From Sphaerochaetaceae bacterium (lineage in GTDB: Bacteria > Spirochaetota > Spirochaetia > Sphaerochaetales > Sphaerochaetaceae), in NCBI GenBank assembly GCA_024698005.1, contig JAILRW010000089.1:1-14179 (forward strand): a DNA stretch of 14,179 nt, read 5' to 3'. Positions 694-13,905 of this stretch are shown here, piece by piece; position 1 is the stretch's first letter; the number at the start of each line of letters is the position of its first letter. Both the position numbers and the translations under genes were made by a program. The notes below the pieces were generated by a model. It saw nothing but the letters and a program-made list of their open reading frames with translations, ran no database searches and was not told the DNA's origin.

Positions 694-1491
694 TCAATTA
701 GGGATGGAGAAGAGTTTTTCTGCAGTTCTGTGGAAGATGTTCTCATACTCTTCGCTTGTGAGGTTCAAGGAAAGCATTGCATCAAGCTCAGGATCAACAT
801 CCCACATTGGGAAATCTGAACCAAACATAATCTTTTCAGAGCCGAATGTTCTTATATACTTTTTGACCTTATCTTTTTCTACCCAGTGGAAGGTGGATGA
901 GGTATCTACAAACAAATTGTCATAAGTGTGAAGCCTCTCTACAGCCTCATCCCAGACCGACCAGCCTGAAAAATGAGCTCCGATGAAGGTTGTTTTTGGA
1001 AACATCCTTAACACAGGTTCTAGCTGATCAGGATTGGAGTAGTTATAGCGGTAATCTCCAGTATGGATAAGCACAGGAAGTCTTCCTTCACAAGCCTCGT
1101 AGAGTGGAAGAAGTCTTTTGTCGTTTATTGCACATAACTGTGTATCAGGATGGAGCTTTATACCTTTTAGTCCCAGAGAGATGATTTTATCAACAATTCC
1201 ACCCATATCAGGATAGTCCTGATGTACAGTACCTAGTCCTGTAAAAAAGCCATCTCCGAGAAGAACGGTGTTTGATATGAATGCATTTATACTATCAGTC
1301 TGAGCGAGCCTTGTTGCAACTGAAAAGATCACGGCATGGTCTACGCCACTATTTTCCCAGTGCTTTTTCATGCTGGCTGCTCTGCCATCTCCATAGCTAT
1401 GGATCCCATCATAGAAATCAGAGACACTCTTTACTGCCTTCATGGCAATTGCCTCAGGATATACATGACAATGGGAATCGATAATACGCAT
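694..1491 (-). CDS. Amidohydro_2 (PF04909-type) metal-dependent TIM-barrel hydrolase
   Basis: ORF 694-1503. I prefer the ATG at 1491 (MRIIDSHCHVY) because GGAG at 1498-1501 lies 6 nt upstream and the TTG at 1503 sits in the terminator U-tract. Hallmark strand motifs are present: DSHCHV (HxH), GIKLHP, PVLIHTG, GAHFSG, DTSS, IMFGSDFP. Confidence 0.8.
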   Translation of the reverse strand: MRIIDSHCHVYPEAIAMKAVKSVSDFYDGIHSYGDGRAASMKKHWENSGVDHAVIFSVATRLAQTDSINAFISNTVLLGDGFFTGLGTVHQDYPDMGGIVDKIISLGLKGIKLHPDTQLCAINDKRLLPLYEACEGRLPVLIHTGDYRYNYSNPDQLEPVLRMFPKTTFIGAHFSGWSVWDEAVERLHTYDNLFVDTSSTFHWVEKDKVKKYIRTFGSEKIMFGSDFPMWDVDPELDAMLSLNLTSEEYENIFHRTAEKLFSIPN

Positions 1492-1501
1492 ATTTTGCTC
1501 C

Positions 1502-1536
1502 AAAAGAAGCTATATCCGAGAATCCTCGGATATAGC
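1502..1536 (-). terminator. Rho-independent terminator downstream of the oxidoreductase gamma gene
   Basis: Perfect 12-bp inverted repeat gctatatccgag (1509-1520) / ctcggatatagc (1525-1536) with a 4-nt loop. On the minus strand it is followed by UUCUUUU (1508-1502). It lies 33 nt after the stop codon at 1570-1572. Confidence 0.8.
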
Positions 1537-1569: not shown

Positions 1570-2106
1570 TTACTCTTCTATATAGTTATAGCCAGCATCA
1601 ATTGCCTTCAAGTTGAGATCGTACATCTCTGGATGTTTTGCAGAGACGACCTTCTTGAGAGCTTCTTCAAGATAACCTCTTGAGAGTTCAGAATCCTTCA
1701 GCACCTTACCGATAAGTACGATGTTTGCAAGATTTGAAGCGCCAATATCCTGGGCAATTTTAGTTGCAGGAATATAGAAAGCTTCTACATCTTTTCTCTG
1801 TACCTTTCTTCCGACCAAGGATGAGTCGACAAAAATTGCACCACCTGGTTTTACAGTAGATTCATAACGATCTAAGGAAGGAAGGTTCATTACAATGAGA
1901 ACATCAGGATTATCGATGATAGGGGAACCGACAGGCTCGTCACTGATAGTGACAGAGCAGGAAGCAGTACCACCTCTCATTTCAGGACCATAGGAAGGGA
2001 GCCAAGAGAGCTCTTTTCCCTCTGAAAGTGCCTTGTAGGCAAGCAGCTTGCCAGAGAAGAGAATACCCTGACCTCCGAAACCAGCGATGAGAATCTGTGT
2101 TGTCAT
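1570..2106 (-). CDS. 2-oxoacid:ferredoxin oxidoreductase, gamma subunit
   Basis: 178 aa. The N-terminus [22 protein letters not shown] carries the GGQG motif typical of POR/KOR/VOR gamma subunits. The ATG at 2104-2106 overlaps the beta stop codon (ATGA), indicating translational coupling. Confidence 0.85.
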
Positions 2107-2855
2107 GCCTTTGCCTCCTGGTCCTTATCCTTGAAAACTCCGAGTGGGTAGTAAGGAATCATGTTGTTATCAACCCATTCAAGTGCCTTCTGAGGTGTCA
2201 TGCCCCAGTTTGTAGGACAAGCTGAGACAACTTCGATAAGTGAGAAGCCCTTACCCTCAATCTGGTTTCTGAAAGCCTTTTCAATTGCTTTCTTTGCTTT
2301 GAGTACATTCTTTACATTGTTTGCTGCAACACGCTCAATGTAGTATGGAGCATCGAGTGCAGAAAGCATCTCACAGACTTTGATAGGATAACCTGCGACC
2401 TTTACATCACGGCCATAAGGTGAGGTCTGAGTGACCTGACCTGGCAGTGATGTAGGAGCCATCTGGCCACCTGTCATACCATAGATTGCATTGTTGACGA
2501 AGATGATTGTGATATTCTCATTTCTGGTAGCAGCATGGACTGTTTCAGCCATACCGATACTAGCGAGGTCTCCATCACCCTGATAGGTAAAGACAATATT
2601 TCCAGGAAGAGCTCTCTTGATACCTGTTGCAACTGCAGGTGCTCTGCCGTGAGCGGCTTCTACCATATCACAAGAGAAGTAATCATAAGCCATAACAGCA
2701 CAGCCTACTGGTGCAACACCAATAGTTCTTCCTTCGATGCCGAGTTTGTCAATTGCCTCTGCTACGAGACGATGGATGATTCCATGAGGACAACCTGGAC
2801 AGTAGTGGAGCTCCTTTGAAGTGAGGCTCTTTGGTTTTTCAAATACAATTGCCAT
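2103..2855 (-). CDS. 2-oxoacid:ferredoxin oxidoreductase, beta (TPP-binding) subunit
   Basis: TPP motif YQGDGDLASIG...IIFVNNAIYGMTGGQ and the CPGCPHG cysteine cluster. I chose the start at ATG 2853-2855 (MAIVFEKPK) because it overlaps the alpha stop codon (TAATG). The extra 35 codons in the ORF-track call (to 2960) lie inside the alpha CDS. Confidence 0.85.
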   Translation of the reverse strand: MAIVFEKPKSLTSKELHYCPGCPHGIIHRLVAEAIDKLGIEGRTIGVAPVGCAVMAYDYFSCDMVEAAHGRAPAVATGIKRALPGNIVFTYQGDGDLASIGMAETVHAATRNENITIIFVNNAIYGMTGGQMAPTSLPGQVTQTSPYGRDVKVAGYPIKVCEMLSALDAPYYIERVAANNVKNVLKAKKAIEKAFRNQIEGKGFSLIEVVSACPTNWGMTPQKALEWVDNNMIPYYPLGVFKDKDQEAKA

Positions 2856-3922
2856 TAGTTCTTTCCTCCTTCTGCAAGTTCCTTTGTGACCTTGATAATC
2901 TGATCGACACTTGGAATCATACCGCCAGCTCTGTTGCAAAGAACAACAGGTCTGAGGCACTCTTCTGCGAGTTTTACATCTTCGATCATCTGACCCATTG
3001 AAAGCTCTACACTGACAAAGCCTTTTACCTTATCGGCTGCTTCTCTGATTGCCTTCTTAGGGAATGGCCAGATTGTGATAGGTCTGATAAGACCGACCTT
3101 CAAGCCTTCCTTTCTCATAGCTGTGATTGCATTCTTTGCAACACGAGCTGCAATACCAAAAGCAACGAGAGCATAATCTGCATCGTCCATCATATAGCTT
3201 TCGTATCTGACCTCGTTCTTTTCGATTTCAGCGTAGCGTTCGAAACGCTCGAAGTTGGTCTTCTCAAGTACTTCTGGGGAAAGATAGAGGGAGTTGATTA
3301 TATTGTGTTCTCTCTTCATCTGTGTACCAGTTACAGCCCAAGGCTTTTCTATTCCAGATTCTTTTTCTTCAGGCAGGGCAACTGGCTCCATCATCTGGCC
3401 CATTGTACCATCAGCAAGCAGCATTGCAGGACAGCGATACTTATCGGCAAGATCGAAAGCGAGGCTTGTAAGGTCTGCCATTTCCTGAACAGAACTAGGT
3501 GTGAGAACTATAAGATGATAGTCTCCATGTCCACCGCCTTTGGTTGCCTGGAAGTAGTCGGACTGGGATGGCTGGATGCCACCAAGGCCTGGACCACCTC
3601 TCTGGACGTTTACAATTACTGCTGGAAGATCTGCACCAGCAATGTAAGAAATACCTTCCTGCTTGAGTGAAATTCCAGGGGAGGAAGAGCTGGTCATAAC
3701 ACGCTTACCGGTGCCTGCGACACCGTATACCATGTTGATTGCACTGATTTCACTTTCAGCCTGTAAAAAGACACCGCCTTCCATCTTGGGAAGCTTCTTT
3801 GCCATGTAGGCAGTAAGCTCTGTCTGTGGAGTGATCGGGTAACCGAAATAATGTCTGCAGCCAGCACGGAGAGCAGCCTCTGCAATGGCCTCATTTCCTT
3901 TCATCAATACTTTTTCTGGCAT
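2855..3922 (-). CDS. 2-oxoacid:ferredoxin oxidoreductase, alpha subunit (VorB/KorA-like)
   Basis: MPEKVLMKGNEAIAEAALRAGCRHYFGYPITPQTE is the typical alpha-subunit N-terminus. The start at ATG 3920-3922 is preceded by AAGGGGG (3928-3934) at 5-nt spacing. The ORF-track start at 3943 would overlap the delta gene. Confidence 0.85.
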   Translation of the reverse strand: MPEKVLMKGNEAIAEAALRAGCRHYFGYPITPQTELTAYMAKKLPKMEGGVFLQAESEISAINMVYGVAGTGKRVMTSSSSPGISLKQEGISYIAGADLPAVIVNVQRGGPGLGGIQPSQSDYFQATKGGGHGDYHLIVLTPSSVQEMADLTSLAFDLADKYRCPAMLLADGTMGQMMEPVALPEEKESGIEKPWAVTGTQMKREHNIINSLYLSPEVLEKTNFERFERYAEIEKNEVRYESYMMDDADYALVAFGIAARVAKNAITAMRKEGLKVGLIRPITIWPFPKKAIREAADKVKGFVSVELSMGQMIEDVKLAEECLRPVVLCNRAGGMIPSVDQIIKVTKELAEGGKN

Positions 3923-3932
3923 CCGAACCCCC

Positions 3933-4139
3933 TTATCTCTCAACCGTTATAACGCAGTCTGGACACATAGTTGCGCAGAATGCACAAGCTATGCACTTGC
4001 TCTGGTCAGTCATTACGGCAGGGTTGTGTCCCTTTTTGTTGATCTTGTTTCTGTCAAGCGCAAGTATGTGCTTTGGACAGGCGTCTACACAGAGCCCACA
4101 GCCCTTGCAGATGTCCTCATTGAATGTCACTTTCGCCAT
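3933..4139 (-). CDS. 2-oxoacid:ferredoxin oxidoreductase, delta subunit (2x[4Fe-4S] ferredoxin)
   Basis: 68 aa with two CxxCxxCxxxCP motifs (CKGCGLCVDACP and CIACAFCATMCP). It sits immediately upstream of the alpha subunit, giving the delta-alpha-beta-gamma order of four-subunit VOR/KOR/POR enzymes. Confidence 0.85.
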   Translation of the reverse strand: MAKVTFNEDICKGCGLCVDACPKHILALDRNKINKKGHNPAVMTDQSKCIACAFCATMCPDCVITVER

Positions 4140-4155
4140 AGGAATACCCCATAAT

Positions 4156-4800
4156 TTATATTTCGAATGGTCGTCTCTGAAGTTTCAGAGGGACCATATC
4201 CTCAGTTGCAATACTCTCTTCTGCAGCAGTATAGACAAGAGGAAGAAAAGTGGTCTCAGAGAGCTTCTGGGCTCTCTCATAAGTTGCTTGTATCTTCTCT
4301 ACTGTTGTCTCCTGTCCCAGATTCGAGTTGTTTATTATCCCAGTGAATTTAAGTCCACACGCTCCCTCTATCTCCCTCATGACCTCGATAGCTTCATCAA
4401 CTGTAGTAGTAAGAGGGCGATAAAAGTTGACGACATAGAACATGTCATAGTCATTTTCTTCCAAGATATATGGAACAAAACGGCCAAGAGCATAGGCTCC
4501 ACGGTCATCACCTCCGATATCGAGAACGGCGTAGCGGCTTTTATCCTCCACCAGAGCATACGTCTCGCTTGGTAAGGCAGGTAGGTCAACGCTACTGTTT
4601 GCAAACGGTAGCGCTATTACCTTTACACCTTCTTTTTCAAGCAGGTCTTTACTATCCTTGGACCTGAAATATGGGTTAACTATGTCTATATCTGCCAGAC
4701 TTACAGGAAGATTCTTCCTTCTGAGATAGAGGGCATAGTTTACGGCAAGATTGGTCTTGCCACTGCCATAGTGTCCACAGAATAGTGTCATTCTCTTCAT
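4156..4800 (-). CDS. P-loop NTPase of unknown function
   Basis: Walker A GHYGSGKT near the N-terminus and a Walker-B-like hhhhD segment AVLDIGGDD. The ATG is 3 nt after the aminotransferase stop codon. I could not assign a finer family by eye. Confidence 0.6.
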   Translation of the reverse strand: MKRMTLFCGHYGSGKTNLAVNYALYLRRKNLPVSLADIDIVNPYFRSKDSKDLLEKEGVKVIALPFANSSVDLPALPSETYALVEDKSRYAVLDIGGDDRGAYALGRFVPYILEENDYDMFYVVNFYRPLTTTVDEAIEVMREIEGACGLKFTGIINNSNLGQETTVEKIQATYERAQKLSETTFLPLVYTAAEESIATEDMVPLKLQRRPFEI

Positions 4801-4803
4801 GTT

Positions 4804-5898
4804 TTAAGCCTTGAGACCGAGCTTGTAGACCCAGCCCATGAAGTCTTCAACCTTGCCAGTCTGCATACCGTAGAGGTTGTCATAGAGCTTCTGAGCAACA
4901 GGACCGACCTTGCCATCACCTACGACGTAATCTTCACCCTTTACACAGAGTGTGCCGATAGGGGAGATGACTGCAGCAGTGCCGGAAGCGAAGATTTCCT
5001 TGAGGTGACCGCTCTTGCTTGCTTCCATGATCTCATCAATTGAAAGCTTTCTTTCTGTAATCTTGATGTTCCAGTGCTTGAGGAGCTGGATTACAGAGTC
5101 ACGAGTGATACCAGGAAGGATTGTCTCAGAGTCGAGTGGGGCTGTAATTACCTCATCATCGATCATGAAGAAGGCGTTGGATGTACCAATCTCTTCAACA
5201 TACTTGTGTTCAGCAGCATCGAGCCAGAGTACGTCCTTACAGTTGTACTTCATTGCATCCTGGCTTGCTCTCATGCCACCACCGTAGTTGCCACCGACCT
5301 TTGCATAGCCTGTGCCACCCTTGGCAGCACGGATGTACTTATCCTGGACGTAGATTCTAGTTGTAGATAGACCTCCATCGTTAGCAGCATAGTAGGAACC
5401 GGTTGGAGAGAGGATTACCATGAAGCGGTAGTGCTTTGCAGGAAGTACAGAGAAGGAAACCTCATCACCAAAGATGAATGGTCTGATATACAGTGCAGTA
5501 CCTGGTGCAGTTGGAACCCAATCAATATCTTCCTTGATAACAGCCTTGATACCAGCAAGAAGAATGTCACCTGGGAGCTCAGGAATACACATTCTTTCAT
5601 TGGTGCGTGCCATTCTCTTGACGTTCATATCTGGTCTGAAGATCTGGATATCGCCTTCGCTGGTTCTGTAAGCTTTCATGCCCTCGAACATCATCTGAGC
5701 ATAGTGAAGTACGCAAGATGCTGGTTCAATAAGAATTGGTTCGTGTGGAACAACTCTACCATCGTGCCATCCCTGACCCTCATCCCAGTCCATGCAGAAC
5801 ATGTGATCGGTGAAATACTGTGCGAATCCGAGCTTGGTCTGGTCAGTTGGCCTCTTTTTCGGATGTGTGGTCCTAGTTACTGGAAAATTGTACTCCAT
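4804..5898 (-). CDS. ilvE: Branched-chain amino acid aminotransferase (fold-type IV)
   Basis: GFAQYFTDHMF, HYAQMMFEGMKAYR, ALYIRPF, LSPTGSYY, GGTGYAKVGGNYG, EIGTSNAFF and LPGITR closely resemble long-form BCATs such as Bacillus YbgE/YwaA. I chose the start at ATG 5896-5898 (MEYNFPV) because AAGGAG lies 9 nt upstream. The ORF-track start at 5925 is a TTG that overlaps the preceding gene. Confidence 0.9.
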   Translation of the reverse strand: MEYNFPVTRTTHPKKRPTDQTKLGFAQYFTDHMFCMDWDEGQGWHDGRVVPHEPILIEPASCVLHYAQMMFEGMKAYRTSEGDIQIFRPDMNVKRMARTNERMCIPELPGDILLAGIKAVIKEDIDWVPTAPGTALYIRPFIFGDEVSFSVLPAKHYRFMVILSPTGSYYAANDGGLSTTRIYVQDKYIRAAKGGTGYAKVGGNYGGGMRASQDAMKYNCKDVLWLDAAEHKYVEEIGTSNAFFMIDDEVITAPLDSETILPGITRDSVIQLLKHWNIKITERKLSIDEIMEASKSGHLKEIFASGTAAVISPIGTLCVKGEDYVVGDGKVGPVAQKLYDNLYGMQTGKVEDFMGWVYKLGLKA

Positions 5899-5921
5899 AA
5901 AGCATATCTCCTTTTCCATAA

Positions 5922-6710
5922 TCAATTTACTTTGTATATATCAGGTCTTCTATCAGCAAAGACATTGATACTTGTTCTTATACCATCGAGAATGCTTGGG
6001 TCAAGAGTTGCATAAAGTATTTCTTCCTTATCCTTTGCATGTGCGATGGTTTCTCCCCATGGATCTGTAACAGAGCTGTTACCACCAAATACAGTTCCTG
6101 GAGCCTTGCCTGCTGAATTGCAGCAGACGACAAACATCTGGTTCTCAATAGCTCTTGCTTTTGTGAGTGCATCAAGGTGAGGCACTCTGACAAGTGGCCA
6201 CTGGGATACCATGAAGAGAACGTCGAGTCCCTTTGTGCTCATTGTTCTGATGAGCTCAGGGAAGCGAACGTCATAACAGATAATTACACCACATTTGAGT
6301 CCATCGAGGGTGAAGGTGGAAGTGTGGTTTCCTTTTTTGAAGAACTTGTCTTCCCCCATTGGTGAAAATAGGTGAGTCTTATCGTACTCAGCTACTACAT
6401 TTCCCTCGCGGTCGAATGTGTAGGATGTGTTGTAGATACCATCTGCTTTTTTATTGGCAATACTACCTGCAACAATGTTTACACCCAGCTCCTTGGCAAG
6501 AGGAGAGAATGTCGCTTTAAGCATTGCACCATCCTGATCTGCAAGCTTTTCCAGGTTTTCCTCTGGGAAAAAACCTACATTCCAGGTCTCTGGCAGAAGA
6601 ATGACATCAGGCTTCTTCTCTGCTGCTTCACGCACAAGAGCTACTGCCTTCTTGAAATTGTCTTCTGGCTTTGCAAAAGCCATATCCATTTGAATACAAG
6701 AGACCTTCAT
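5922..6710 (-). CDS. Carbon-nitrogen hydrolase (nitrilase superfamily; omega-amidase/Nit2/MtnU-like)
   Basis: 262 aa. Glu-Lys-Cys triad contexts are present: ILLPETW, YDKTHLF, GVIICYDVRFPE. GAGGAGG lies upstream of the ATG at 6710. Confidence 0.8.
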   Translation of the reverse strand: MKVSCIQMDMAFAKPEDNFKKAVALVREAAEKKPDVILLPETWNVGFFPEENLEKLADQDGAMLKATFSPLAKELGVNIVAGSIANKKADGIYNTSYTFDREGNVVAEYDKTHLFSPMGEDKFFKKGNHTSTFTLDGLKCGVIICYDVRFPELIRTMSTKGLDVLFMVSQWPLVRVPHLDALTKARAIENQMFVVCCNSAGKAPGTVFGGNSSVTDPWGETIAHAKDKEEILYATLDPSILDGIRTSINVFADRRPDIYKVN

Positions 6711-6721
6711 TATCTTCCTCC

Positions 6722-8983
6722 TCAGAGCATATTGCGGATAATCTTTCCGCTGATTGTCTTAGGAAGCTCGTCCCTGAAGACAATCTGTCTTGGATACTTG
6801 TAAGGTGCGGTGTGCGACTTTACATAGTTCTGGATTTCCTTCTTGAGATCCTCTGATGGTTCTGTTCCCTTTGTAAGAACGATAGATGCCTTTACAATCT
6901 GTCCTCTTACAGGATCTGGAGCAGCAGATACACCACACTCGAGAACGTAAGGGAGCTCCATGATTACAGACTCTACTTCGAATGGTCCGATTCTGTAGCC
7001 AGAGGACTTGATGATGTCGTCTACGCGACCGACATAGAAGAAGTAGCCATCCTCATCCTGCCATGCAGTATCACCTGTGTGGTAGAATCCATCGTGGATT
7101 GCTTCCTTGGTCTTCTCCTCATCCCTGTAGTACTCAGTAAAGAGACCAACTGGTCTTCCTTCAGAAAGATCGATGACGATTTCACCAACTTCACCTGGTG
7201 GTACTGGCTTTCCTTCATTGTCAACAAGCATGACCTTGTACTGAGGAGAAGCCTTACCCATAGAACCGAGCTTGACCTTTCCACCACCGAAGTTTGCAAC
7301 GGTAAGGGTTGTTTCGGTCTGGCCAAAGCCTTCGCAGATCTCCAATCCTGTTGCCTTGTAGAACTGTGTTGCAACCTCTGGGTTGAGTGCTTCGCCAGCT
7401 GTGGTCATATGCTTGACTGAACTGAAGTTGTACTTTGAGAGATCCTCTTTTATCATCATCCTGAGCATTGTAGGAGGTGCACAGAAGGTCTTGATCTGGT
7501 AGTTTGCAAACATAGGCATGATATCGTCTGCGTGGAAGCGATCGAAGTCGTAGACAAAGACAGCGCCTTCACACATCCACTGGCCATAGAGCTTGCCCCA
7601 GAGGGACTTGCCCCAGCCGGTATCGGAGATGGTGAGGTGAAGTCCATCAGGCTCGCAGCAGTGCCAATACTTTGCAGTGAGGAAGTGACCCAAAGCATAG
7701 GTGTGCTTGTGCTCGACCATCTTTGGGTTTCCTGTAGTACCAGAAGAGAAGAACATGAGTGCGGCTTCATCACCACATGGAGTCTTATCAGTTCTTCTGA
7801 GGGAGCTCTTGAATCTTGGATACTCCTCATTGAAGTCTCTCCAACCATCTCTCTGACCATTTACGATCATCTTGAGCTTAAGTGTTGGACAGTTTGGCTG
7901 TACCTTATCAACTGTTTCTGCACAGTCTCCATCAGCAGTACATACGATTGCCTTTATACCTGCAGCGTTGAAGCGGTATTCGAAGTCGTGCTCTCTGAGC
8001 TGGTAGGTTGCAGGAATAGCAACTGCTCCGATCTTGTGAAGAGCAACCATAGCAGGCCAGAACTGGTAATGTCTCTTGAGAACAAGCATTACCTTATCCC
8101 CTTGTTCGATTCCCAATGAGAGGAAGTAGTTTGCGACTCTGGCACTTTCCTTCTTTATATCCATGAAGGTAAGACGACGCTCTACCTTGTTCTTGTCAAG
8201 GTGGATCATAGCAAGTCTATCAGGATACTTTTCAGCAATTGCATCGACAACATCGTAACCGAAGTTGAACTTCTCTGTATTCTTGAATTTGACGTCTTTC
8301 AGGACACCCTTTTCATCTTCGATACAGTCGACGAACTTGTTGATAAGCAGTTTGCGTGTTGATGGTGCAGGTGCAAGAGATGCAGCTATGCTTGTATCAC
8401 CATTCTCATCCTCGCCAGGAAGGACAACTGCTACGAAGAGACAGTCCTTGCCGTCGATTGCAATCATGCCGTGTGGGGTAGAGGAGTTGTAATAGATACA
8501 GTCACCTTCATGGAGAACTTCCTTATTGGTTCCGACCTGTACAAGGAGAGAACCCTGGATGACGATATCGAATTCCTGTCCAGCGTGGGTTGCAAGCTGG
8601 ATTGGTTTTCCCTGAAGTTCTTCCGAGTAGTCGTACTTTACCCAGTAAGGCTCTGCAATCTTGTTCTTGAATTTAGGAGCAAGGTTCTGGATATCTATAC
8701 CCATCTCCTTTGCGGTCTGCTGACCCATGCCCTTACGGGTTATTGTGTAGGATGAAAGTCTTGTAGAATGACCTTCAAGCAGATCGGTAATATCGATTGC
8801 GAAAACCATTGCACACTTGTGAATGAAAGAGAAAGGAAGGTCTGCTTCTCCACTTTCATAAGCCTTGTATTCTGCAAGGGTCAGGTCAGTTTTCTGAGCC
8901 ATGGTGTTCTGAGAGAAACCCATGATCTCGCGCATGTCTCGAATTCTGGATGCGACTTCCAGAAGCTGTGATTCAGTATCCAC
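6722..8983 (-). CDS. Fusion protein: XRE-type HTH plus cupin (aa 1-190) joined to an ACSM-type medium-chain acyl-CoA synthetase (aa 211-753)
   Basis: GTG start at 8983 with GGAGG (8990-8994) 6 nt upstream. The N-terminus (REIMGFSQNTMAQKTDLTLAEYKAYESG) is an HTH_3-like segment. It is followed by cupin strands (HAGQEFDIVIQGSL...LHEGDCIYYNSSTPHGM). The C-terminal 540 aa carry AMP-binding motifs FFSSGTTGNPK, DTGWGKSLW, GFGQTETT, YHTGD, GRVDDIIKSSGYRIGPFEVE and LPKTISGKIIR, and resemble ACSM/MACS enzymes (APDPVRGQIVKA, APYKYPRQIVF). Confidence 0.85.
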   Translation of the reverse strand: MDTESQLLEVASRIRDMREIMGFSQNTMAQKTDLTLAEYKAYESGEADLPFSFIHKCAMVFAIDITDLLEGHSTRLSSYTITRKGMGQQTAKEMGIDIQNLAPKFKNKIAEPYWVKYDYSEELQGKPIQLATHAGQEFDIVIQGSLLVQVGTNKEVLHEGDCIYYNSSTPHGMIAIDGKDCLFVAVVLPGEDENGDTSIAASLAPAPSTRKLLINKFVDCIEDEKGVLKDVKFKNTEKFNFGYDVVDAIAEKYPDRLAMIHLDKNKVERRLTFMDIKKESARVANYFLSLGIEQGDKVMLVLKRHYQFWPAMVALHKIGAVAIPATYQLREHDFEYRFNAAGIKAIVCTADGDCAETVDKVQPNCPTLKLKMIVNGQRDGWRDFNEEYPRFKSSLRRTDKTPCGDEAALMFFSSGTTGNPKMVEHKHTYALGHFLTAKYWHCCEPDGLHLTISDTGWGKSLWGKLYGQWMCEGAVFVYDFDRFHADDIMPMFANYQIKTFCAPPTMLRMMIKEDLSKYNFSSVKHMTTAGEALNPEVATQFYKATGLEICEGFGQTETTLTVANFGGGKVKLGSMGKASPQYKVMLVDNEGKPVPPGEVGEIVIDLSEGRPVGLFTEYYRDEEKTKEAIHDGFYHTGDTAWQDEDGYFFYVGRVDDIIKSSGYRIGPFEVESVIMELPYVLECGVSAAPDPVRGQIVKASIVLTKGTEPSEDLKKEIQNYVKSHTAPYKYPRQIVFRDELPKTISGKIIRNML

Positions 8984-8998
8984 AACTTACCTCCGTAT

Positions 8999-9045
8999 AA
9001 AAAAAGCTCGTCTCAAAGACTTGCGAATTATCTTTGAGACGAGCT
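8999..9045 (-). terminator. T-box expression-platform terminator
   Basis: 15-bp perfect stem AGCUCGUCUCAAAGA (9045-9031) / UCUUUGAGACGAGCU (9019-9005) with an 11-nt loop, followed by a run of U to 8999. The 5' arm (CUCAAA, 9038-9033) can alternatively pair with UUUGAG (9093-9088) of the T-box motif to form the antiterminator. Confidence 0.9.
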
Positions 9046-9287
9046 ACATATCCAATCAAAGAATGAGATATGATACCCGCGGTACCACTCAAATTGCGCA
9101 TTTCTGCGCCACTCAGGCTCTATCAAGCCGTATGCCCTAACGCGGCAGGATCGGGGGCCCATTACTCACCATAAAATGGCTTTCCTTTCCCCAGCTCGGA
9201 AGTGATAGGATTACAGGCCCTTCGCTACTGGCTCACACCGTACCCAGCTCGCTGATGCTATCTTCCTGGTCCCTCTTCGTCTTAGCT
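8999..9287 (-). promoter_or_regulatory. T-box riboswitch leader (tRNA-sensing transcription attenuator), probable Ile (AUC) specifier
   Basis: Read on the minus strand. The K-turn-like stem I base is AGC-UAA-GA-C-GAAG (9287-9275) with CUUC-C-GA-GCU (9202-9193). AG box AGCGAG is at 9253-9248. The distal stem CUGG/CCAG carries a loop containing GGUGUGAG (9239-9232). Stem III is GCGCA-GAAA-UGCGC (9109-9096). The T-box motif AAUUUGAGUGGUACCGCGGG is at 9095-9076, and its UGGU bulge implies an A73 tRNA. An antiterminator/terminator alternative is present. The candidate specifier AUC (9206-9204) plus purine A (9203) lies directly 5' of the closing CUUC. Confidence 0.85.
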
Positions 9288-9296
9288 ATTAATTCG

Positions 9297-9325
9297 CTTT
9301 TACCATTTCAGAAAAAAAGAGTCAA
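9297..9325 (-). promoter_or_regulatory. Putative sigma-A promoter for the T-box leader
   Basis: Minus strand: -35 TTGACT (9325-9320), 17-nt spacer ending in TGG (extended -10), -10 TAAAAG (9302-9297). The -35 element overlaps the TGA stop codon (9322-9324) of the upstream ligase gene. The -10 is weak, so this call is tentative. Confidence 0.4.
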
Positions 9326-11778
9326 CAAAGATTGAACCTTTTTTCTGAAACCTCTTTCATTTTATATTTCAAGATCTTTCCCGCAGCGTTCATTGGGAAA
9401 CTTTCTACGAATACAAAGTAGCGAGGCACCTTGTGCTTTGCCATTGATTTGTAACCGTAATCCTTCATCTCTGCTTCGTCTGCACTCTGGCCATCATGCA
9501 AGATTACCCAGGCACAGGCCTCCTCGCCATAGACGTTATCCTTGACGCCGACTACCTGAACATCCTTTATCTTTGGATTTGTGAGATAGAACTCCTCGAT
9601 TTCTCTTGGATAGATATTCTCTCCTCCACGGATGATCATGTCCTTGAGACGACCTGTTACCTTGAAGTAGCCATCTGGGGTGCGGCAGCAGATATCGCCT
9701 GTATGGAGCCAACCATCGGCATCGATGGTCTTTGCTGTAGCTTCAGGCATCTTGTAGTAGCCTTTCATTATGTTGAAGCCTCTGGCAACGAACTCTCCAT
9801 TTTCTCCATCTGGCAGGTCTTTGCCAGTTTCAGGATCGATGATCTTGCACTCGACACCAGGGAAGGCAGAGCCTACAGTGTCTACTCTGTGGTCAAGGTC
9901 CTCATTTACTTCTCCCATGGTACAGCCAGGGGAGGATTCAGTCTGGCCGTATACGGACAGGATTTCCTTCATGTTCATTTCAACAGAGGCTCTTCTCATA
10001 AGATCTGCAGGGCAGTTTGCACCAGCCATGATTCCGGTTCTCATGTATGAGAAATCGGTCTTGGCAAAGTCAGCATGGTTGAACATTGCAATGAACATTG
10101 TAGGAACACCATTGAAGCAGGTGATTTTCTCTTGGTTTATGCAAGCAAGTGATGAGCGGGGTGAGAAGTATGGCATTGGACAGATGGTTCCACCGTGAGT
10201 CATCAGGTTAGTCATAGAAAGTACCATACCAAAGCAGTGGAACATAGGGACCTGGATCATCATTCTGTCTGCAGTAGAGATGTCCATTCTATCCCCGATA
10301 GTCTTACCGTTGTTGATGATATTCTTATGTGTCAGCATGACTCCCTTAGGAAAGCCAGTGGTTCCTGATGTGTACTGCATGTTACATACATCATCAGGTC
10401 TTACCATTGAAGCTCTTCTTCTGACCTCTTCCTGAGGAATGCTATCTGCACGCTCAAGCATCTGGTCCCAGTTGAGAGCCCCTTCCATGTCGAACCCGAC
10501 AGTTATTACATTTCTCAAAAAAGGCAGTCTCTTGGCAAAGAGAGGTTCTCCCTTCTTGTGCTTTTCAAGCTCAGGACAGAGCTCCTGGACAATTTCCTTG
10601 TAGCCAATATCCTTGAGGCTCTCGATCATGACGAGAGTGTGGGTATCTGACTGTCTGAGAAGATACTCGACTTCATGGATTTTATAAGCTGTGTTGACAG
10701 TGACAAGTACGGCACCGATCTTGGTCGCAGCCCAGAAGGATAAAAACCAGGCTGGGATGTTGGTTGCCCAGACAGCTACGTGGTAGCCAGGCTTTACTCC
10801 AAGGGAAATAAAGGCAGCAGCAACTGTATCTACATCCTTCTTGAATTCACTGTATGTCCTTGTGTAATCAAGGGTTGTATATTTGAATGCATACTGATCC
10901 GGATACTTTTCAGCCATAGTATCCAGAACCTCTCCAAAAGTTTTGTTTATAACCTTGTATTTCTTCCAAGGGAATGTGCCTGTTCTAGAGCGATTGAAAT
11001 AGATGGTGTCCTTCTTCTGGTTCTCTCCAGAAAGACGGGAGATGAAGGTTCCAAAGTGAGTGAGAACGATATCTGCATCCTGAACTTCATCATTCCAGTC
11101 AACTGCGAAGAAGCCTTCGTAGTTGAGGGACCTCAGGGCCTTGAGGAAATCCTCAACAGGAAGCTTTCCTTCACCGATAAGGACATTGGTATCATCAAGG
11201 CGGTCACCGATACGGACATATCGAATGTAGGCACCAAGTGTCTTTATTGTAGTCTCTGCACTCTCTCCTGCGAAGAAATAGCTCTCTCTAACATTCCAGG
11301 CAGCCCCGATAGCAGGGGAAGCAAAGACATTTATTATATCCAGAAGCTCACTGGTCTTTGAGAGAGGACCACTAGTTTCAAAGAGGATATCAATATTCTT
11401 CTTTTCCGCTATTTCTATGGCCTGCTCAAACTTCTTCAGGAGCTCTGTTGCATCCACTTGATCATCGATAGATACGATTACATTCTCAACTGATGATAGG
11501 GCAGCCATATCAATATACTGGACGAGAGATACAGCTGAAACCTCAGCGTGGTTTACTGGAAGAGGAAAGGTGATCGCGGAAACTTCTACAGAGTGGTTTC
11601 TCTGGGCAATTCTTCCTTCAGAGATCGACTCTGCTCTCAGAACACTGTCCGAGTGCTTATTTCTCTCTTCTGCTGCATCGTAGATTTCAAAACCATCCAT
11701 GCCATATTCAGAGGCAAAGCGACAGAGTGATGAGAAGGATGGCAGGTCAACATATCTTGTTGAAAAAGCTATCTTCAT
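9322..11778 (-). CDS. Fusion protein: xylose-isomerase-like TIM barrel (aa 1-250) joined to an AMP-dependent acyl-CoA ligase (FadD/ACSF2-like, aa 270-818)
   Basis: The N-terminal segments GMDGFEIY, ILFETSG, YIRYVRIGD and GEGKLPVEDFLKALRSLNYEGFFAVDW follow the pattern of AP_endonuc_2 / sugar-phosphate isomerase-epimerase barrels. The C-terminal part has QYTSGTTGFPKGVMLTH, YGQTESSP, GWLHTGD, GRLKDMIIRGGENIYPREIE and NAAGKILK. The ATG at 11778 overlaps the stop codon of the upstream gene by 4 nt (ATGA). Confidence 0.8.
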   Translation of the reverse strand: MKIAFSTRYVDLPSFSSLCRFASEYGMDGFEIYDAAEERNKHSDSVLRAESISEGRIAQRNHSVEVSAITFPLPVNHAEVSAVSLVQYIDMAALSSVENVIVSIDDQVDATELLKKFEQAIEIAEKKNIDILFETSGPLSKTSELLDIINVFASPAIGAAWNVRESYFFAGESAETTIKTLGAYIRYVRIGDRLDDTNVLIGEGKLPVEDFLKALRSLNYEGFFAVDWNDEVQDADIVLTHFGTFISRLSGENQKKDTIYFNRSRTGTFPWKKYKVINKTFGEVLDTMAEKYPDQYAFKYTTLDYTRTYSEFKKDVDTVAAAFISLGVKPGYHVAVWATNIPAWFLSFWAATKIGAVLVTVNTAYKIHEVEYLLRQSDTHTLVMIESLKDIGYKEIVQELCPELEKHKKGEPLFAKRLPFLRNVITVGFDMEGALNWDQMLERADSIPQEEVRRRASMVRPDDVCNMQYTSGTTGFPKGVMLTHKNIINNGKTIGDRMDISTADRMMIQVPMFHCFGMVLSMTNLMTHGGTICPMPYFSPRSSLACINQEKITCFNGVPTMFIAMFNHADFAKTDFSYMRTGIMAGANCPADLMRRASVEMNMKEILSVYGQTESSPGCTMGEVNEDLDHRVDTVGSAFPGVECKIIDPETGKDLPDGENGEFVARGFNIMKGYYKMPEATAKTIDADGWLHTGDICCRTPDGYFKVTGRLKDMIIRGGENIYPREIEEFYLTNPKIKDVQVVGVKDNVYGEEACAWVILHDGQSADEAEMKDYGYKSMAKHKVPRYFVFVESFPMNAAGKILKYKMKEVSEKRFNLC

Positions 11779-13169
11779 TTCTGGCTCTCCTCATAGGCAA
11801 TCTTGTTGAGTGCGTTGATGTATGCACGTATTGAAGCACCGACGATGTCGGAAGAAAGGCCATTTCCTGAGTAGAGCTTTCCATCACTTCTAAGTCTTAC
11901 AAGAGCACTTCCCAATGATTCCTTGCCTTCTGTTACTGCCTGGATCTGGAAATCATCAACCTCATACTGGTGTCCTACACACTGTTCTATTGCCATGAAG
12001 GCTGAATCGATAGGGCCACCACCTACGCCATTGCCACTGAGGTTTTCACCTCCCTTGTCGAGAACAACGTTGGTAACGCTGTTTACCTTGTTTGAGGTAG
12101 TAACAACGAAGGAAATCAAGTTGTAGGTTGCAGGGAACTGCATTGCACTTGATGCAATTATTGCCTCAAGCTCCTTGCTGGAAATGGAAGATTTCTTCTC
12201 GCAAAGGCTCATGAGAGCTTCGTAGACCTTGCCATTGTCATCTGGAGAGAGGTCGTATCCCAAGGATTTAACTGCTTCGGTTACCTGCTCTATGGAGCTT
12301 TCAGAGTCGAGGAAGATTGCTGAACCATCGAGGTGGAAATCCTCTTCCTCCTTCTTCTTGTTCTGTATCTTCTTGAGCATTGATTCGATATCGGAGTGAA
12401 GCTCAGTAAAGCGCAGGTTTGTAGCGATATCGAGATCACTTCCCTTGATCTTGAGAGCCTGGGCAAAGCTGTCGATTTTCAACGCATCCTTACCGTTTAT
12501 GCTGACTTTGACGCCATCTACGCCTGCCTTTATGGCCTGGAGAGCATTGGCAACAGCAAGGCTTATGCTATCAGATACTTTTACCATTACAGGAAGCTTT
12601 ACATTCTCTTTTATCTCTTTTACGAGAAGTGCGAAATCCTCTGGCATCAAGATTCCTGCATCATCAGAGATTGTGATGATGCCAGCACCTGCTTCCTTTG
12701 CAGCCTTGCAGGCCTGGATCAGGATTTCCTTGTCACTTCTTGTTGCATCGAGGGCCTCGAATTCTACATCTTCACAAACTCCTCTAGCCGCAAGCACAAG
12801 CTCCTTGAGCTTTTCAAGAAGTTTAGGTTCCTTAAGCCTGTACAGATACTCCATCTGAACGGTTGAGACAGGAAGTGAAATCTGAAGCCTTGGATGGAAT
12901 GCACTCTTGATGGATTCTGCAGCCAGCTTGACCTCTTCAACTTTGATTCCTGCAGGGATTGCAATGATTCTGTTCTTTACAGATTCAGAGATTGTCTTTG
13001 CGACAATCTTGTCTTCTCTAGGGTTCTTTATATAAGGTAGTTCGATCACATCAGCACCGTACCTACATAGACCTAGGGCAATAGCAAGCTTTTCTCTGAA
13101 TAAAAGCTGTGACTTTCCACTGCCACCAAGTTCTTTCAATGTGTAATCGGAAATAGTGATTCTTCTCAT
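11775..13169 (-). CDS. 2-isopropylmalate/citramalate synthase-like protein with a degenerate active site and a conserved LeuA-type C-terminal regulatory domain
   Basis: Start at ATG 13167-13169 (MRRITISDYTL) with AAAGGAG (13175-13181) 5 nt upstream. It is colinear with LeuA: the HMGL-like barrel (VEFEALDATR, ITISDDAGILMP, LAVANALQAIKAGVDGVKVSING) and the C-terminal domain (GNGVGGGPIDSAFMAIEQ...GKESLGSALVRL...GNGLSSDIVGASIRAYINALNKI). The catalytic motifs are replaced; see findings. Confidence 0.75.
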   Translation of the reverse strand: MRRITISDYTLKELGGSGKSQLLFREKLAIALGLCRYGADVIELPYIKNPREDKIVAKTISESVKNRIIAIPAGIKVEEVKLAAESIKSAFHPRLQISLPVSTVQMEYLYRLKEPKLLEKLKELVLAARGVCEDVEFEALDATRSDKEILIQACKAAKEAGAGIITISDDAGILMPEDFALLVKEIKENVKLPVMVKVSDSISLAVANALQAIKAGVDGVKVSINGKDALKIDSFAQALKIKGSDLDIATNLRFTELHSDIESMLKKIQNKKKEEEDFHLDGSAIFLDSESSIEQVTEAVKSLGYDLSPDDNGKVYEALMSLCEKKSSISSKELEAIIASSAMQFPATYNLISFVVTTSNKVNSVTNVVLDKGGENLSGNGVGGGPIDSAFMAIEQCVGHQYEVDDFQIQAVTEGKESLGSALVRLRSDGKLYSGNGLSSDIVGASIRAYINALNKIAYEESQK

Positions 13170-13216
13170 GTGATCTCCTTTCATGCTATTTGAGTAAATA
13201 GCTTTGCATGCTCACA

Positions 13217-13581: not shown

Positions 13582-13905
13582 TCACATGATTCTGATAAGA
13601 AGCATGTAGCAAAGTGTTCCCACAATTATAGAAAGGTACATGTTCCTTCTTGTCCACTGAAGTAGGACTACAAGGAGGGATGAGATTATTTCAGGTAGAC
13701 CGAAAGGGTAAGAGGTGAAGTTACTGTTCCTGAGCAGGTAGATGACAAGGGTTGTCATTATGGCAGGTGGCAGCACTTTGCCAAGGTAAGAAAGCCACCA
13801 AGGGAGGCTTTTACCGGAAAAGAGCAGGAATGGAAGTGCTCTGAGAGTTGTTGTAACAGCTGCAATTGTCAAAATTGATACCAGGATTGTGGCTGTATCA
13901 TTCAT
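13582..13905 (-). CDS. azlD: Branched-chain amino acid transport protein AzlD
   Basis: 107-aa hydrophobic protein (LRALPFLLF...LPPAIMTTLV...) with the size and pattern of AzlD. Its ATG (13903-13905) overlaps the end of the upstream AzlC-like ORF by 8 nt. Confidence 0.8.
   Translation of the reverse strand: MNDTATILVSILTIAAVTTTLRALPFLLFSGKSLPWWLSYLGKVLPPAIMTTLVIYLLRNSNFTSYPFGLPEIISSLLVVLLQWTRRNMYLSIIVGTLCYMLLIRIM

Follow-up and report, generated by a model that had tools for sequence, protein, structure and literature searches.

A divergent isoleucine T-box leader and a predicted isoleucine-from-2-methylbutyrate operon in a rumen or gut spirochaete

What would a sensor of transfer RNA (tRNA) charging control in a spirochaete when the genes behind it encode metabolic enzymes and not an aminoacyl-tRNA synthetase? 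The question is raised by a 14,179-nt stretch of DNA (contig JAILRW010000089.1, assembly GCA_024698005.1; hereafter the window) from a rumen or gut Sphaerochaetaceae bacterium. An earlier reading made from the letters alone (the sequence-only reading) had described a complete class I T-box riboswitch on the minus strand of this stretch and had called its cargo unusual. A 2008 survey (PMC2494555) counted 0 of 6 Spirochaete genomes as T-box-positive, and Spirochaetota are absent from the T-box phyla listed in 2013. We conclude that the leader is almost certainly a real, complete, isoleucine (Ile)-specific transcriptional T-box. Taking RNA and genes together, we consider it likely that a tRNA-Ile T-box and an operon for making Ile from 2-methylbutyrate were acquired jointly from Clostridia.

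The element at issue is the following.

8999-9292, minus strand: complete T-box leader RNA, comprising Stem I, Stem II, Stem IIA/IIB, an extra hairpin, Stem III and the antiterminator/terminator

Each landmark that the sequence-only reading had listed for its class I T-box was recovered here. The minimum free energy (MFE) fold of the entire leader did not reproduce the T-box fold, and its stability was not significant (z = -1.58), so we relied on comparative structure. Relatives of the 753-aa protein encoded by the first downstream gene were searched in one genome per species; at least 583 encoded such relatives, and 80 loci (given L numbers where they must be told apart) were kept. The six closest, at 74-94% identity, belong to metagenome-assembled genomes (MAGs) of Spirochaetales, Sphaerochaetaceae or Ornithospirochaeta, obtained in independent studies from rumen, horse, bird and other gut samples. 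The other kept loci come from Clostridia (Acutalibacteraceae, Oscillospiraceae and Christensenellaceae) at about 70% identity. Of the 80 loci, 79 carry the motif UGGUACC[G/A]CG upstream of this gene, mostly by about 85-160 nt, and gene order is conserved across loci.

Which amino acid the leader senses was left unread by the sequence-only reading, although its structural call held. We place the codon as follows.

9204-9206, minus strand: specifier AUC (isoleucine), followed by A9203 and abutting, on its 5' side, the CUUC strand of the helix above the kink-turn (K-turn)

AUC is present in 77/77 leaders that precede orthologs of at least 66% identity, the ATC column is invariant across 75 aligned leaders, and the RNAalifold consensus leaves N-AUC-N unpaired. 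The specifier loop is compact, with 2 nt (9274-9273) opposite 5 nt (9207-9203; columns 17-18 and 94-98 of the 5'-domain alignment, A2). Leaders of a paralogous second synthetase carry GUA at the same column in 52 of 53 cases and AUA in the remaining one, and the leaders of clostridial LeuA-like genes carry CUC. That a single structural position alternates between AUC, GUA and CUC is strong evidence, internal to this locus, for our reading of the codon. The alternative frames UAU, CAC and UCA were ruled out, as only the AUC column becomes GUA or CUC in the paralog leaders and abuts the conserved helix. CUC is itself reported as the experimentally established specifier in the ilv-leu T-box from Bacillus subtilis (Marta et al. 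1996, cited in PMC2494555). The UGGU of the T-box bulge is invariant in 76 leaders. An A73 discriminator is common to bacterial tRNA-Ile, tRNA-Val and tRNA-Leu, and it matches this invariant UGGU.

The 5' domain of the leader holds the parts that would recognize the body of the tRNA.

9193-9287, minus strand: Stem I, with K-turn base, specifier internal loop, AG bulge and distal loop
9287-9285 (AGC) with 9195-9193 (GCU), and 9281-9280 (GA) with 9197-9196 (GA), minus strand: K-turn base, pattern AGC-UAA-GA ... GA-GCU
9253-9248, minus strand: AG bulge AGCGAG, within Stem I
9239-9232, minus strand: distal loop GGUGUGAG, within Stem I
9154-9192, minus strand: Stem II, containing a conserved AGUA (alignment A2 columns 109-113/154-158)
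9133-9153, minus strand: candidate Stem IIA/IIB pseudoknot with F-box-like CGCGUUA (9144-9138)
9115-9130, minus strand: extra short hairpin between IIA/B and Stem III (alignment A2 columns 182-187/192-197)
9096-9110, minus strand: Stem III with a GAAA tetraloop, compensatory changes in 4-5 of 5 pairs

Alignment A2 comprises 75 leaders aligned with MAFFT, and its consensus fold, obtained with RNAalifold, independently gave Stem I, Stem II, an IIA-type hairpin, the extra hairpin and Stem III, with compensatory changes in 33 of 40 predicted pairs. After the second IIA/IIB helix was added, 94.4% of cells were paired and 33 of 43 pairs were compensatory. None of 500 shuffles was as good, and shifted registers reached 33-44%. 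The Stem I helices (A2 columns 4-6/106-108, 13-16/99-102, 19-21/91-93, 24-26/82-84, 37-39/73-75 and 48-53/67-72) mostly showed compensatory changes; the pairing figures of two variable ones (79.6% and 88.4%) are depressed by a one-column slip in the MAFFT alignment. The GA dinucleotides of the predicted K-turn are invariant and their flanking helices covary. The helix between the AG bulge and the distal loop is 95.5% paired. Both of these motifs are conserved in the alignment, the window having AGCGA against a family consensus of AGAGA in the bulge and GGUGUGAG against GGUGNRA in the loop.

Further along the 5' domain, Stem II is 96.3% paired with compensatory changes in 4 of 5 pairs. The IIA pairing (C9153 and G9152 with G9141 and C9142) is invariant and 97.3% paired; IIB (UGC 9147-9145 with GCA 9135-9133) is 98.2% paired, with a compensatory change seen in all three pairs, and the F-box CGUUA/CGUAA is conserved. 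The extra hairpin (96% paired) has compensatory changes in 5 of 6 pairs. Stem III is 94.3% paired in the 5'-domain alignment and 92% in the 3'-domain alignment, where 4 of 5 pairs are compensatory.

The 3' domain contains two mutually exclusive structures that share one strand.

9076-9095, minus strand: T-box sequence AAUUUGAGUGGUACCGCGGG, the antiterminator 5' strand, invariant in 76 leaders
9093-9088, 9087-9081 and 9080-9076, minus strand: its parts A1 (UUUGAG), the 7-nt bulge UGGUACC and A2 (GCGGG)
9044-9075, minus strand: 32-nt insert forming an extension hairpin in the antiterminator loop
9033-9043, minus strand: shared strand CUCGU-CUCAAA (CUCGUCUCAAA), either antiterminator 3' strand (A2', A1') or terminator 5' strand, exclusively
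8999-9045, minus strand: intrinsic terminator by MFE fold, a 16-pair hairpin (9045-9030 with 9020-9005) and a U-tract (9005-8999)

We counted pairs in a MAFFT alignment of 76 Ile-type leaders. The pairing of UUUGAG (9093-9088) with CUCAAA (9038-9033) proposed by the sequence-only reading was upheld, as A1 pairs with the shared strand in 98.5% of cases; A2 does so in 93.7%, and the antiterminator overall in 95%, mostly without variation. For A1, near-invariance is expected because it is part of the T-box sequence. The terminator is about 92.5% paired, with compensatory changes in 7 of 15 pairs. Neither the observed pairing nor the covariation score was reached by any of 500 shuffles, and register shifts gave 36-51%. 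The conservation of both pairings across orthologous leaders, on which the sequence-only reading had staked its call, was thus found. Across 140 leaders, all five A2 pairs form in 112, all 11 pairs of the terminator core likewise in 112, and a U-run follows in 138. The terminator had been described as a 15-bp stem followed by a U-run; the U-run stands, and the stem has 15 Watson-Crick pairs plus one G-U.

Folding of both conformers, also suggested earlier, gave the antiterminator for the nascent RNA and the terminator for the full domain. When the RNA ends at CUCAAA, the plain MFE structure is the antiterminator with A1, the 7-nt bulge, A2 and the extension hairpin (-26.4 kcal/mol). For the complete 3' domain, the terminator (-43.6 kcal/mol) leads the enforced antiterminator (-32.3 kcal/mol) by about 11 kcal/mol. 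In these calculated energies we see the usual T-box arrangement, in which the antiterminator would need tRNA to win.

A mechanism can be proposed from these parts. Stem I would offer the specifier AUC (9206-9204) to the GAU anticodon of tRNA-Ile, and the platform formed by AG bulge and distal loop would stack onto the tRNA elbow. Uncharged tRNA-Ile has a free ACCA-3' end, which would base-pair with the bulge UGGU (9087-9084) and so stabilize the antiterminator (UUUGAG/CUCAAA and GCGGG/CUCGU). With tRNA-Ile charged, the shared strand 9043-9033 would pass into the more stable 16-bp terminator and transcription would stop at the U-tract (9005-8999). From the sequence, we infer tRNA binding and induction upon Ile starvation.

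How secure is the assignment of the leader? In a permissive-filter Rfam scan, the T-box model RF00230 aligned to 9292-9061 over model positions 1-219 of 219, far ahead of every other Rfam family, with E-values of 4.9e-9 (region) and 1.4e-7 (whole window). By E-value, the match to RF00230 that the sequence-only reading had proposed as a check is therefore significant, though its 46 bits are about half the gathering score of 93 bits, which the window leader does not reach. Alongside this shortfall, several other facts weigh against the assignment. A default Rfam scan of the window reported nothing. An AGUA/GAA S-turn is not obvious in the compact specifier loop. In 23 of 77 Ile orthologs the codon is followed by C, not by the usual purine (in the window it is followed by A). 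Finally, there is no tRNA gene within the window, hence no tRNA anticodon or discriminator to compare with the leader.

The low score can be placed within the family. Two orthologous leaders exceed the gathering score (L019, 105.2 bits; L079, 103.8 bits), and because they do, the window leader is a divergent yet alignable member of a family that includes bona fide Rfam T-boxes. The five other spirochaete leaders match RF00230 at full length with 53-76 bits and E-values of 1e-8 to 1e-14, all below threshold. The insert in the antiterminator loop is the longest of the family in the window and L001 (32 nt; median 15 nt). It causes the RF00230 alignment to misplace the antiterminator 3' strand, pairing the T-box sequence with a nearer CUCA (about 9073-9070). 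That partner was ruled out by the family alignment and the nascent-RNA fold, which give CUCGUCUCAAA at 9043-9033. The insert and the misplaced pairing plausibly explain part of the low score. At the Rfam gathering score, only 2 of 15 scanned Ile-type leaders, and no spirochaete leader, were reported, while all are clear T-boxes by E-value and covariation. Default annotation systematically misses the spirochaete T-box clade and most scanned clostridial orthologs.

Could the leader instead be a decaying relic of horizontal gene transfer that has lost its response to tRNA and serves as a constitutive attenuator, or serves no purpose? Three features would suit such a relic: the leader's Rfam score (46 bits) is the lowest in the family, its antiterminator insert (32 nt) the longest, and its AG bulge reads AGCGA in place of AGAGA. 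However, the six spirochaete leaders, though only 71-93% identical, keep the antiterminator 100% and the terminator 97.8% paired; AUC and UGGUACC do not vary among them, and several stems have compensatory changes. Moreover, a constitutive 16-bp terminator would silence eight conserved genes downstream. We regard a relic as highly improbable. Because leaders that have diverged to this extent preserve both pairings through compensatory changes, the riboswitch is no decaying passenger and is kept under selection in the spirochaete clade.

In its parts and their order, the window leader resembles canonical T-box leaders: K-turn, specifier loop, AG bulge and distal loop, Stem II, IIA/B with F-box, Stem III, a T-box sequence with the 7-nt UGGNACC bulge, and competing antiterminator and terminator. 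It differs from them in lying below the Rfam threshold and in its 32-nt antiterminator-loop insert, its compact specifier loop and the extra hairpin before Stem III. The mechanism is a textbook one, and the RNA adds nothing new on T-box function.

We turn to what the leader would control. The following features lie at or beyond its ends.

9297-9325, minus strand: putative sigma-70 promoter, with -35 TTGACT (9325-9320), -10 TAAAAG (9302-9297) and a 17-nt spacer ending in TGG (extended -10)
8994-8990, minus strand: ribosome-binding site GGAGG, with a GTG start at 8983, 15 nt past the U-tract
6722-8983, minus strand: gene 1, a 753-aa fusion of XRE-type helix-turn-helix (HTH), cupin and AMP-forming acyl-CoA synthetase, predicted 2-methylbutyrate-CoA ligase
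5922-6710, minus strand: carbon-nitrogen hydrolase, Nit2/Nit3 (omega-amidase)-like (Pfam CN_hydrolase)
4804-5925, minus strand: branched-chain amino acid aminotransferase (BCAT), ilvE type II (NCBIfam)
4156-4800, minus strand: 214-aa P-loop NTPase, a distant MinD/ParA/CbiA relative with Walker A GHYGSGKT
1570-4139, minus strand: VOR-type four-subunit 2-oxoacid:ferredoxin oxidoreductase (hereafter VOR; Pfam and NCBIfam)
4139-3933, 3943-2855, 2960-2103 and 2106-1570, minus strand: its delta (2x[4Fe-4S] ferredoxin-like), alpha, beta (thiamine pyrophosphate (TPP)-binding) and gamma subunits
1509-1536, minus strand: terminator-like 12-bp hairpin 3' of the gamma gene, the likely end of the T-box operon (consensus scan only)

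The genes are tightly packed on this single strand, and the regulated unit is most likely an eight-gene operon (8983-1570) read from the leader of about 290 nt onward. The gene start had been placed 16 nt after the U-tract; it is indeed close, at a distance of 15 nt. The promoter was overlooked by a consensus scan, as its -10 box ends in G, and the TGA stop of the upstream gene (9324-9322) falls within the -35 box. A TTGAC-type -35 and a (TG)n -10 stand at a fixed distance 5' of Stem I in 15/15 leaders inspected.

Pfam and NCBIfam agree with the gene list of the sequence-only reading (HTH-cupin/acyl-CoA synthetase fusion, amidase, BCAT, NTPase and ferredoxin oxidoreductase), the NTPase match being weak. 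In gene 1, AMP-binding, AMP-binding_C and Cupin_2 score above the Pfam cut-offs and HTH_19/HTH_3 just below. By a wide margin, the closest solved structure to its synthetase domain is MacsMa of Methanosarcina acetivorans (PDB 3ETC; 631 bits), with 53.4% identity over 526 residues, which span the whole catalytic region. The preferred substrate of MacsMa is 2-methylbutyrate (PMC10455477), a preference that matches the Ile specifier; the window protein has an additional N-terminal region of about 230 residues (XRE-type HTH and cupin). The BCAT passes the curated models NF009897 (446.5 bits, cut-off 307) and TIGR01123 (356 bits, cut-off 250). The VOR complex shares the alpha/beta/gamma/delta make-up of VOR (EC 1.2.7.7), and its alpha subunit exceeds the cut-off of NF005507 'VorB' (553.5 bits versus 399). 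Pfam domains of the complex are POR_N, PFOR_II, TPP_enzyme_C (beta), POR (gamma) and Fer4.

Because the specifier is Ile, this cargo makes sense as an Ile-producing route. The MacsMa-like AMP-forming synthetase would make 2-methylbutyryl-CoA from exogenous 2-methylbutyrate; VOR, with its ferredoxin subunit, would reductively carboxylate this to 3-methyl-2-oxopentanoate; and BCAT would transaminate the latter to Ile. That the operon encodes such a route is, in our judgment, probable. We infer the enzyme substrates and the direction of VOR from sequence. The cargo is less unusual than the sequence-only reading held, because amino-acid biosynthesis genes are the second commonest class of T-box cargo, and the Ile specifier fits it; what does stand out is which route is encoded and in which phylum. 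The B. subtilis ilv-leu T-box, as described in PMC2494555 with reference to Marta et al. 1996, likewise gates branched-chain amino acid production and not an aminoacyl-tRNA synthetase, although the window leader governs a pathway other than the acetolactate-synthase (ilv) one.

The conversion of 2-methylbutyrate to Ile and of isovalerate to leucine (Leu) by rumen organisms is long known (PMC10658910). A ferredoxin-oxidoreductase route from branched-chain volatile fatty acids (VFAs) to amino acids was described as 'theoretically possible' and 'not proven yet' in the organism studied (PMC7709123). Classical reductive carboxylation in rumen anaerobes and methanogens is thus hypothetical at gene level in that literature, whereas the window VOR sits with a dedicated synthetase and BCAT under a riboswitch. 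Our literature search found no paper linking a T-box to a synthetase/VOR/BCAT operon, a provisional result given that an earlier mention in Vitreschak et al. 2008 is possible.

The reading of route and transfer also has evidence to contend with. Gene 1 falls below every NCBIfam equivalog cut-off, so its substrate is drawn from 53% identity to one characterized enzyme. The direction of VOR is not readable from sequence. In Clostridia, the VOR genes lie behind a valine (Val) T-box, not an Ile one, and the link between Ile and VOR is confined to the spirochaete arrangement. The amidase and the NTPase are conserved in the operon yet stand outside the three-step route. The synthetase tree, described below, is a quick neighbor-joining tree without support values, and the spirochaete taxonomy rests on MAG binning. 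As to direction, the fact that VOR would share a transcript and its amino-acid-specific riboswitch with BCAT and a dedicated synthetase argues for the anabolic one.

The same enzymes could also serve lipids. The best NCBIfam model for gene 1 is MbcS, at 442 bits against an equivalog cut-off of 850. Staphylococcus aureus MbcS activates 2-methylbutyrate and isobutyrate and supports branched-chain fatty acid synthesis from both (PMC10026030, PMC11167679). Under the same riboswitch, an MbcS-like operon might mainly supply branched-chain acyl-CoA primers for membrane fatty acids, with Ile starvation signaling a shortage of the Ile-derived primer 2-methylbutyryl-CoA; the reversibility of VOR and BCAT would permit this. 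Yet the synthetase alone would suffice for primers, and the co-transcribed VOR, ferredoxin and BCAT connect the acyl-CoA to an amino acid. MbcS feeds fatty-acid synthesis with no described VOR, BCAT or T-box partner, unlike the window synthetase. In addition, T-boxes report tRNA charging, that is, amino-acid demand, and the Val and Leu paralog units obey the same amino-acid logic. We therefore think a primer-supplying operon quite unlikely and retain the Ile route.

Comparison with Clostridia shows how the spirochaete operon is put together. In most Clostridia a further synthetase, a paralog of about 60% identity, has a T-box to itself, and the genes usually fall into three units.

Clostridia, unit 1: Leu T-box, LeuA-like gene, TIM-barrel::synthetase fusion, sometimes then an Amidohydro_2 gene
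Clostridia, unit 2: Ile T-box, HTH-cupin::synthetase (ACS1)
Clostridia, unit 3: Val T-box, HTH-cupin::synthetase (ACS2), sometimes amidase-BCAT or BCAT, then NTPase, ferredoxin and VOR alpha/beta/gamma

The spirochaete loci, the window among them, have ACS1 only, followed directly by amidase, BCAT, NTPase, ferredoxin and VOR. The window also has an upstream unit (9322-13184, minus strand) with a LeuA-like protein (HMGL-like and LeuA_dimer) and a fusion of a xylose-isomerase-like TIM barrel to an acyl-CoA synthetase. This unit may be the isovalerate/leucine counterpart. The clostridial LeuA-like T-box (CUC) scores 112.8 bits in L033 (699-937) and occurs at equivalent positions in L012, L014, L023, L027, L049, L065 and L066. 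The LeuA-like unit of the spirochaete loci lacks such a leader: a second T-box upstream of the LeuA-like gene was found neither in the window (no match at E below 0.1) nor in L004 or L005.

In the clostridial order (L008-L080, e.g., L033:8312-8562), the Ile T-box and ACS1 come directly before the Val T-box and ACS2, which NTPase, ferredoxin and VOR then follow. A transcript released there by Ile shortage alone would run into the Val terminator ahead of VOR, barring a second promoter or read-through. The spirochaete arrangement is free of this dependency.

With one HTH-cupin synthetase where most Clostridia have an Ile-linked and a Val-linked copy, the Sphaerochaetaceae loci invite a broader reading: a single enzyme, with shared VOR and BCAT, would salvage isobutyrate, 2-methylbutyrate and isovalerate, and tRNA-Ile would serve as a proxy for a general shortage of branched-chain amino acids. 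The adenylation step of MacsMa accepts a range of acyl substrates (PMC10455477). VOR and BCAT enzymes generally act on all three keto acids. Set against this, the retained copy lies in the Ile-linked ACS1 clade, cleanly apart from the Val-linked clade, which argues for specialization of the paralogs, and the window keeps the separate LeuA-like and TIM-barrel::synthetase unit upstream. Salvage of all three acids through one synthetase seems to us unlikely, and we keep to an operon for Ile.

How did these genes reach a spirochaete? A neighbor-joining tree of 130 synthetases groups the seven spirochaete sequences in a single clade, six nodes deep within an 81-tip clostridial ACS1 clade that is separate from ACS2. 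The nesting, with a protein identity of about 70% between the phyla, points to Clostridia as the probable joint source of leader and operon. Such a transfer agrees with the massive, largely one-way uptake of metabolic genes from Clostridiales described for Sphaerochaeta (PMC3372971).

A wider proposal, which we put forward tentatively and rate a little short of even, is that this locus family is the hitherto undescribed genetic basis on which rumen and gut anaerobes assimilate branched-chain VFAs. Three T-boxes (Leu CUC, Ile AUC and Val GUA) would each gate a dedicated synthetase feeding a shared VOR and BCAT, and the Ile module, riboswitch included, would have moved from Clostridia to Sphaerochaetaceae as a functional Spirochaetota T-box. 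Rumen fiber degraders have for decades been known to need branched-chain VFAs, which dairy cattle are given in their feed, while the genes are treated as hypothetical in the literature consulted. The specifier codons act as built-in labels that predict which of three paralogous or fused acyl-CoA synthetases serves Ile, Val or Leu, and they speak for an anabolic, CO2-fixing direction of the adjacent VOR. With at least 583 species-level genomes from gut and rumen bacteria carrying the locus, and with the spirochaete clade and most scanned clostridial orthologs under the Rfam gathering score and thus missed by standard annotation, the value of the finding lies in annotation and ecology rather than in RNA mechanism. 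It also offers an example of a cis-regulatory RNA that crossed phyla with its operon and stayed under selection.

Three conserved accessory parts lie outside the explained route: the HTH-cupin fusion, the Nit2-like amidase and the NTPase. The fused N-terminal XRE-HTH and cupin (residues 1-230) is kept at full length in all 80 relatives, in Ile and Val paralogs alike, and this joining of a DNA-binding domain to an adenylate-forming enzyme is reminiscent of BirA-type enzyme/repressors. For the HTH-cupin domain, no conserved operator was found. A 13-nt A/U-rich inverted repeat on the minus strand, GTTTCAGAAAAAA (9351-9339) and TTTTTTCTGAAAT (9317-9305), flanks the -35 box together with the upstream gene's end; as an operator it was rejected, being present only in the window and its closest relative L001 and so probably not a conserved site.

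The PDB relatives of the hydrolase (3p8k, 2w1v (Nit2) and 1f89) include the omega-amidases Nit2 and yeast Nit3. Its gene adjoins BCAT in 12/12 loci whose BCAT is at least 75% identical to that of the window (L001-L006, L010, L012, L013, L016, L018 and L049) and is present in 0/15 loci carrying a BCAT of the 45-51% type. We speculate that it could cleave 2-oxoglutaramate and thereby render a glutamine-dependent transamination irreversible. The NTPase scores under the Pfam cut-offs (CbiA, 23.5 bits versus 25.4; NUBPL-type ParA, 16.9 bits), and no PDB relative was found for it. Its gene is conserved between the synthetase/BCAT and ferredoxin/VOR genes in nearly every locus, and the protein could be a maturation or Fe-S delivery factor for VOR.

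In the spirochaete loci, a gene of the Amidohydro_2 family (694-1503, minus strand, in the window) follows the putative operon terminator. A homolog of about 41-50% identity lies between the TIM-barrel::synthetase and the Ile T-box in many Clostridia. Just upstream of the LeuA-like unit of the window is a gene for an AzlD-family branched-chain amino acid transport protein (PF05437, 80 bits; 13582-13905, minus strand), and the neighborhood is therefore themed on branched-chain amino acids beyond the T-box operon itself.

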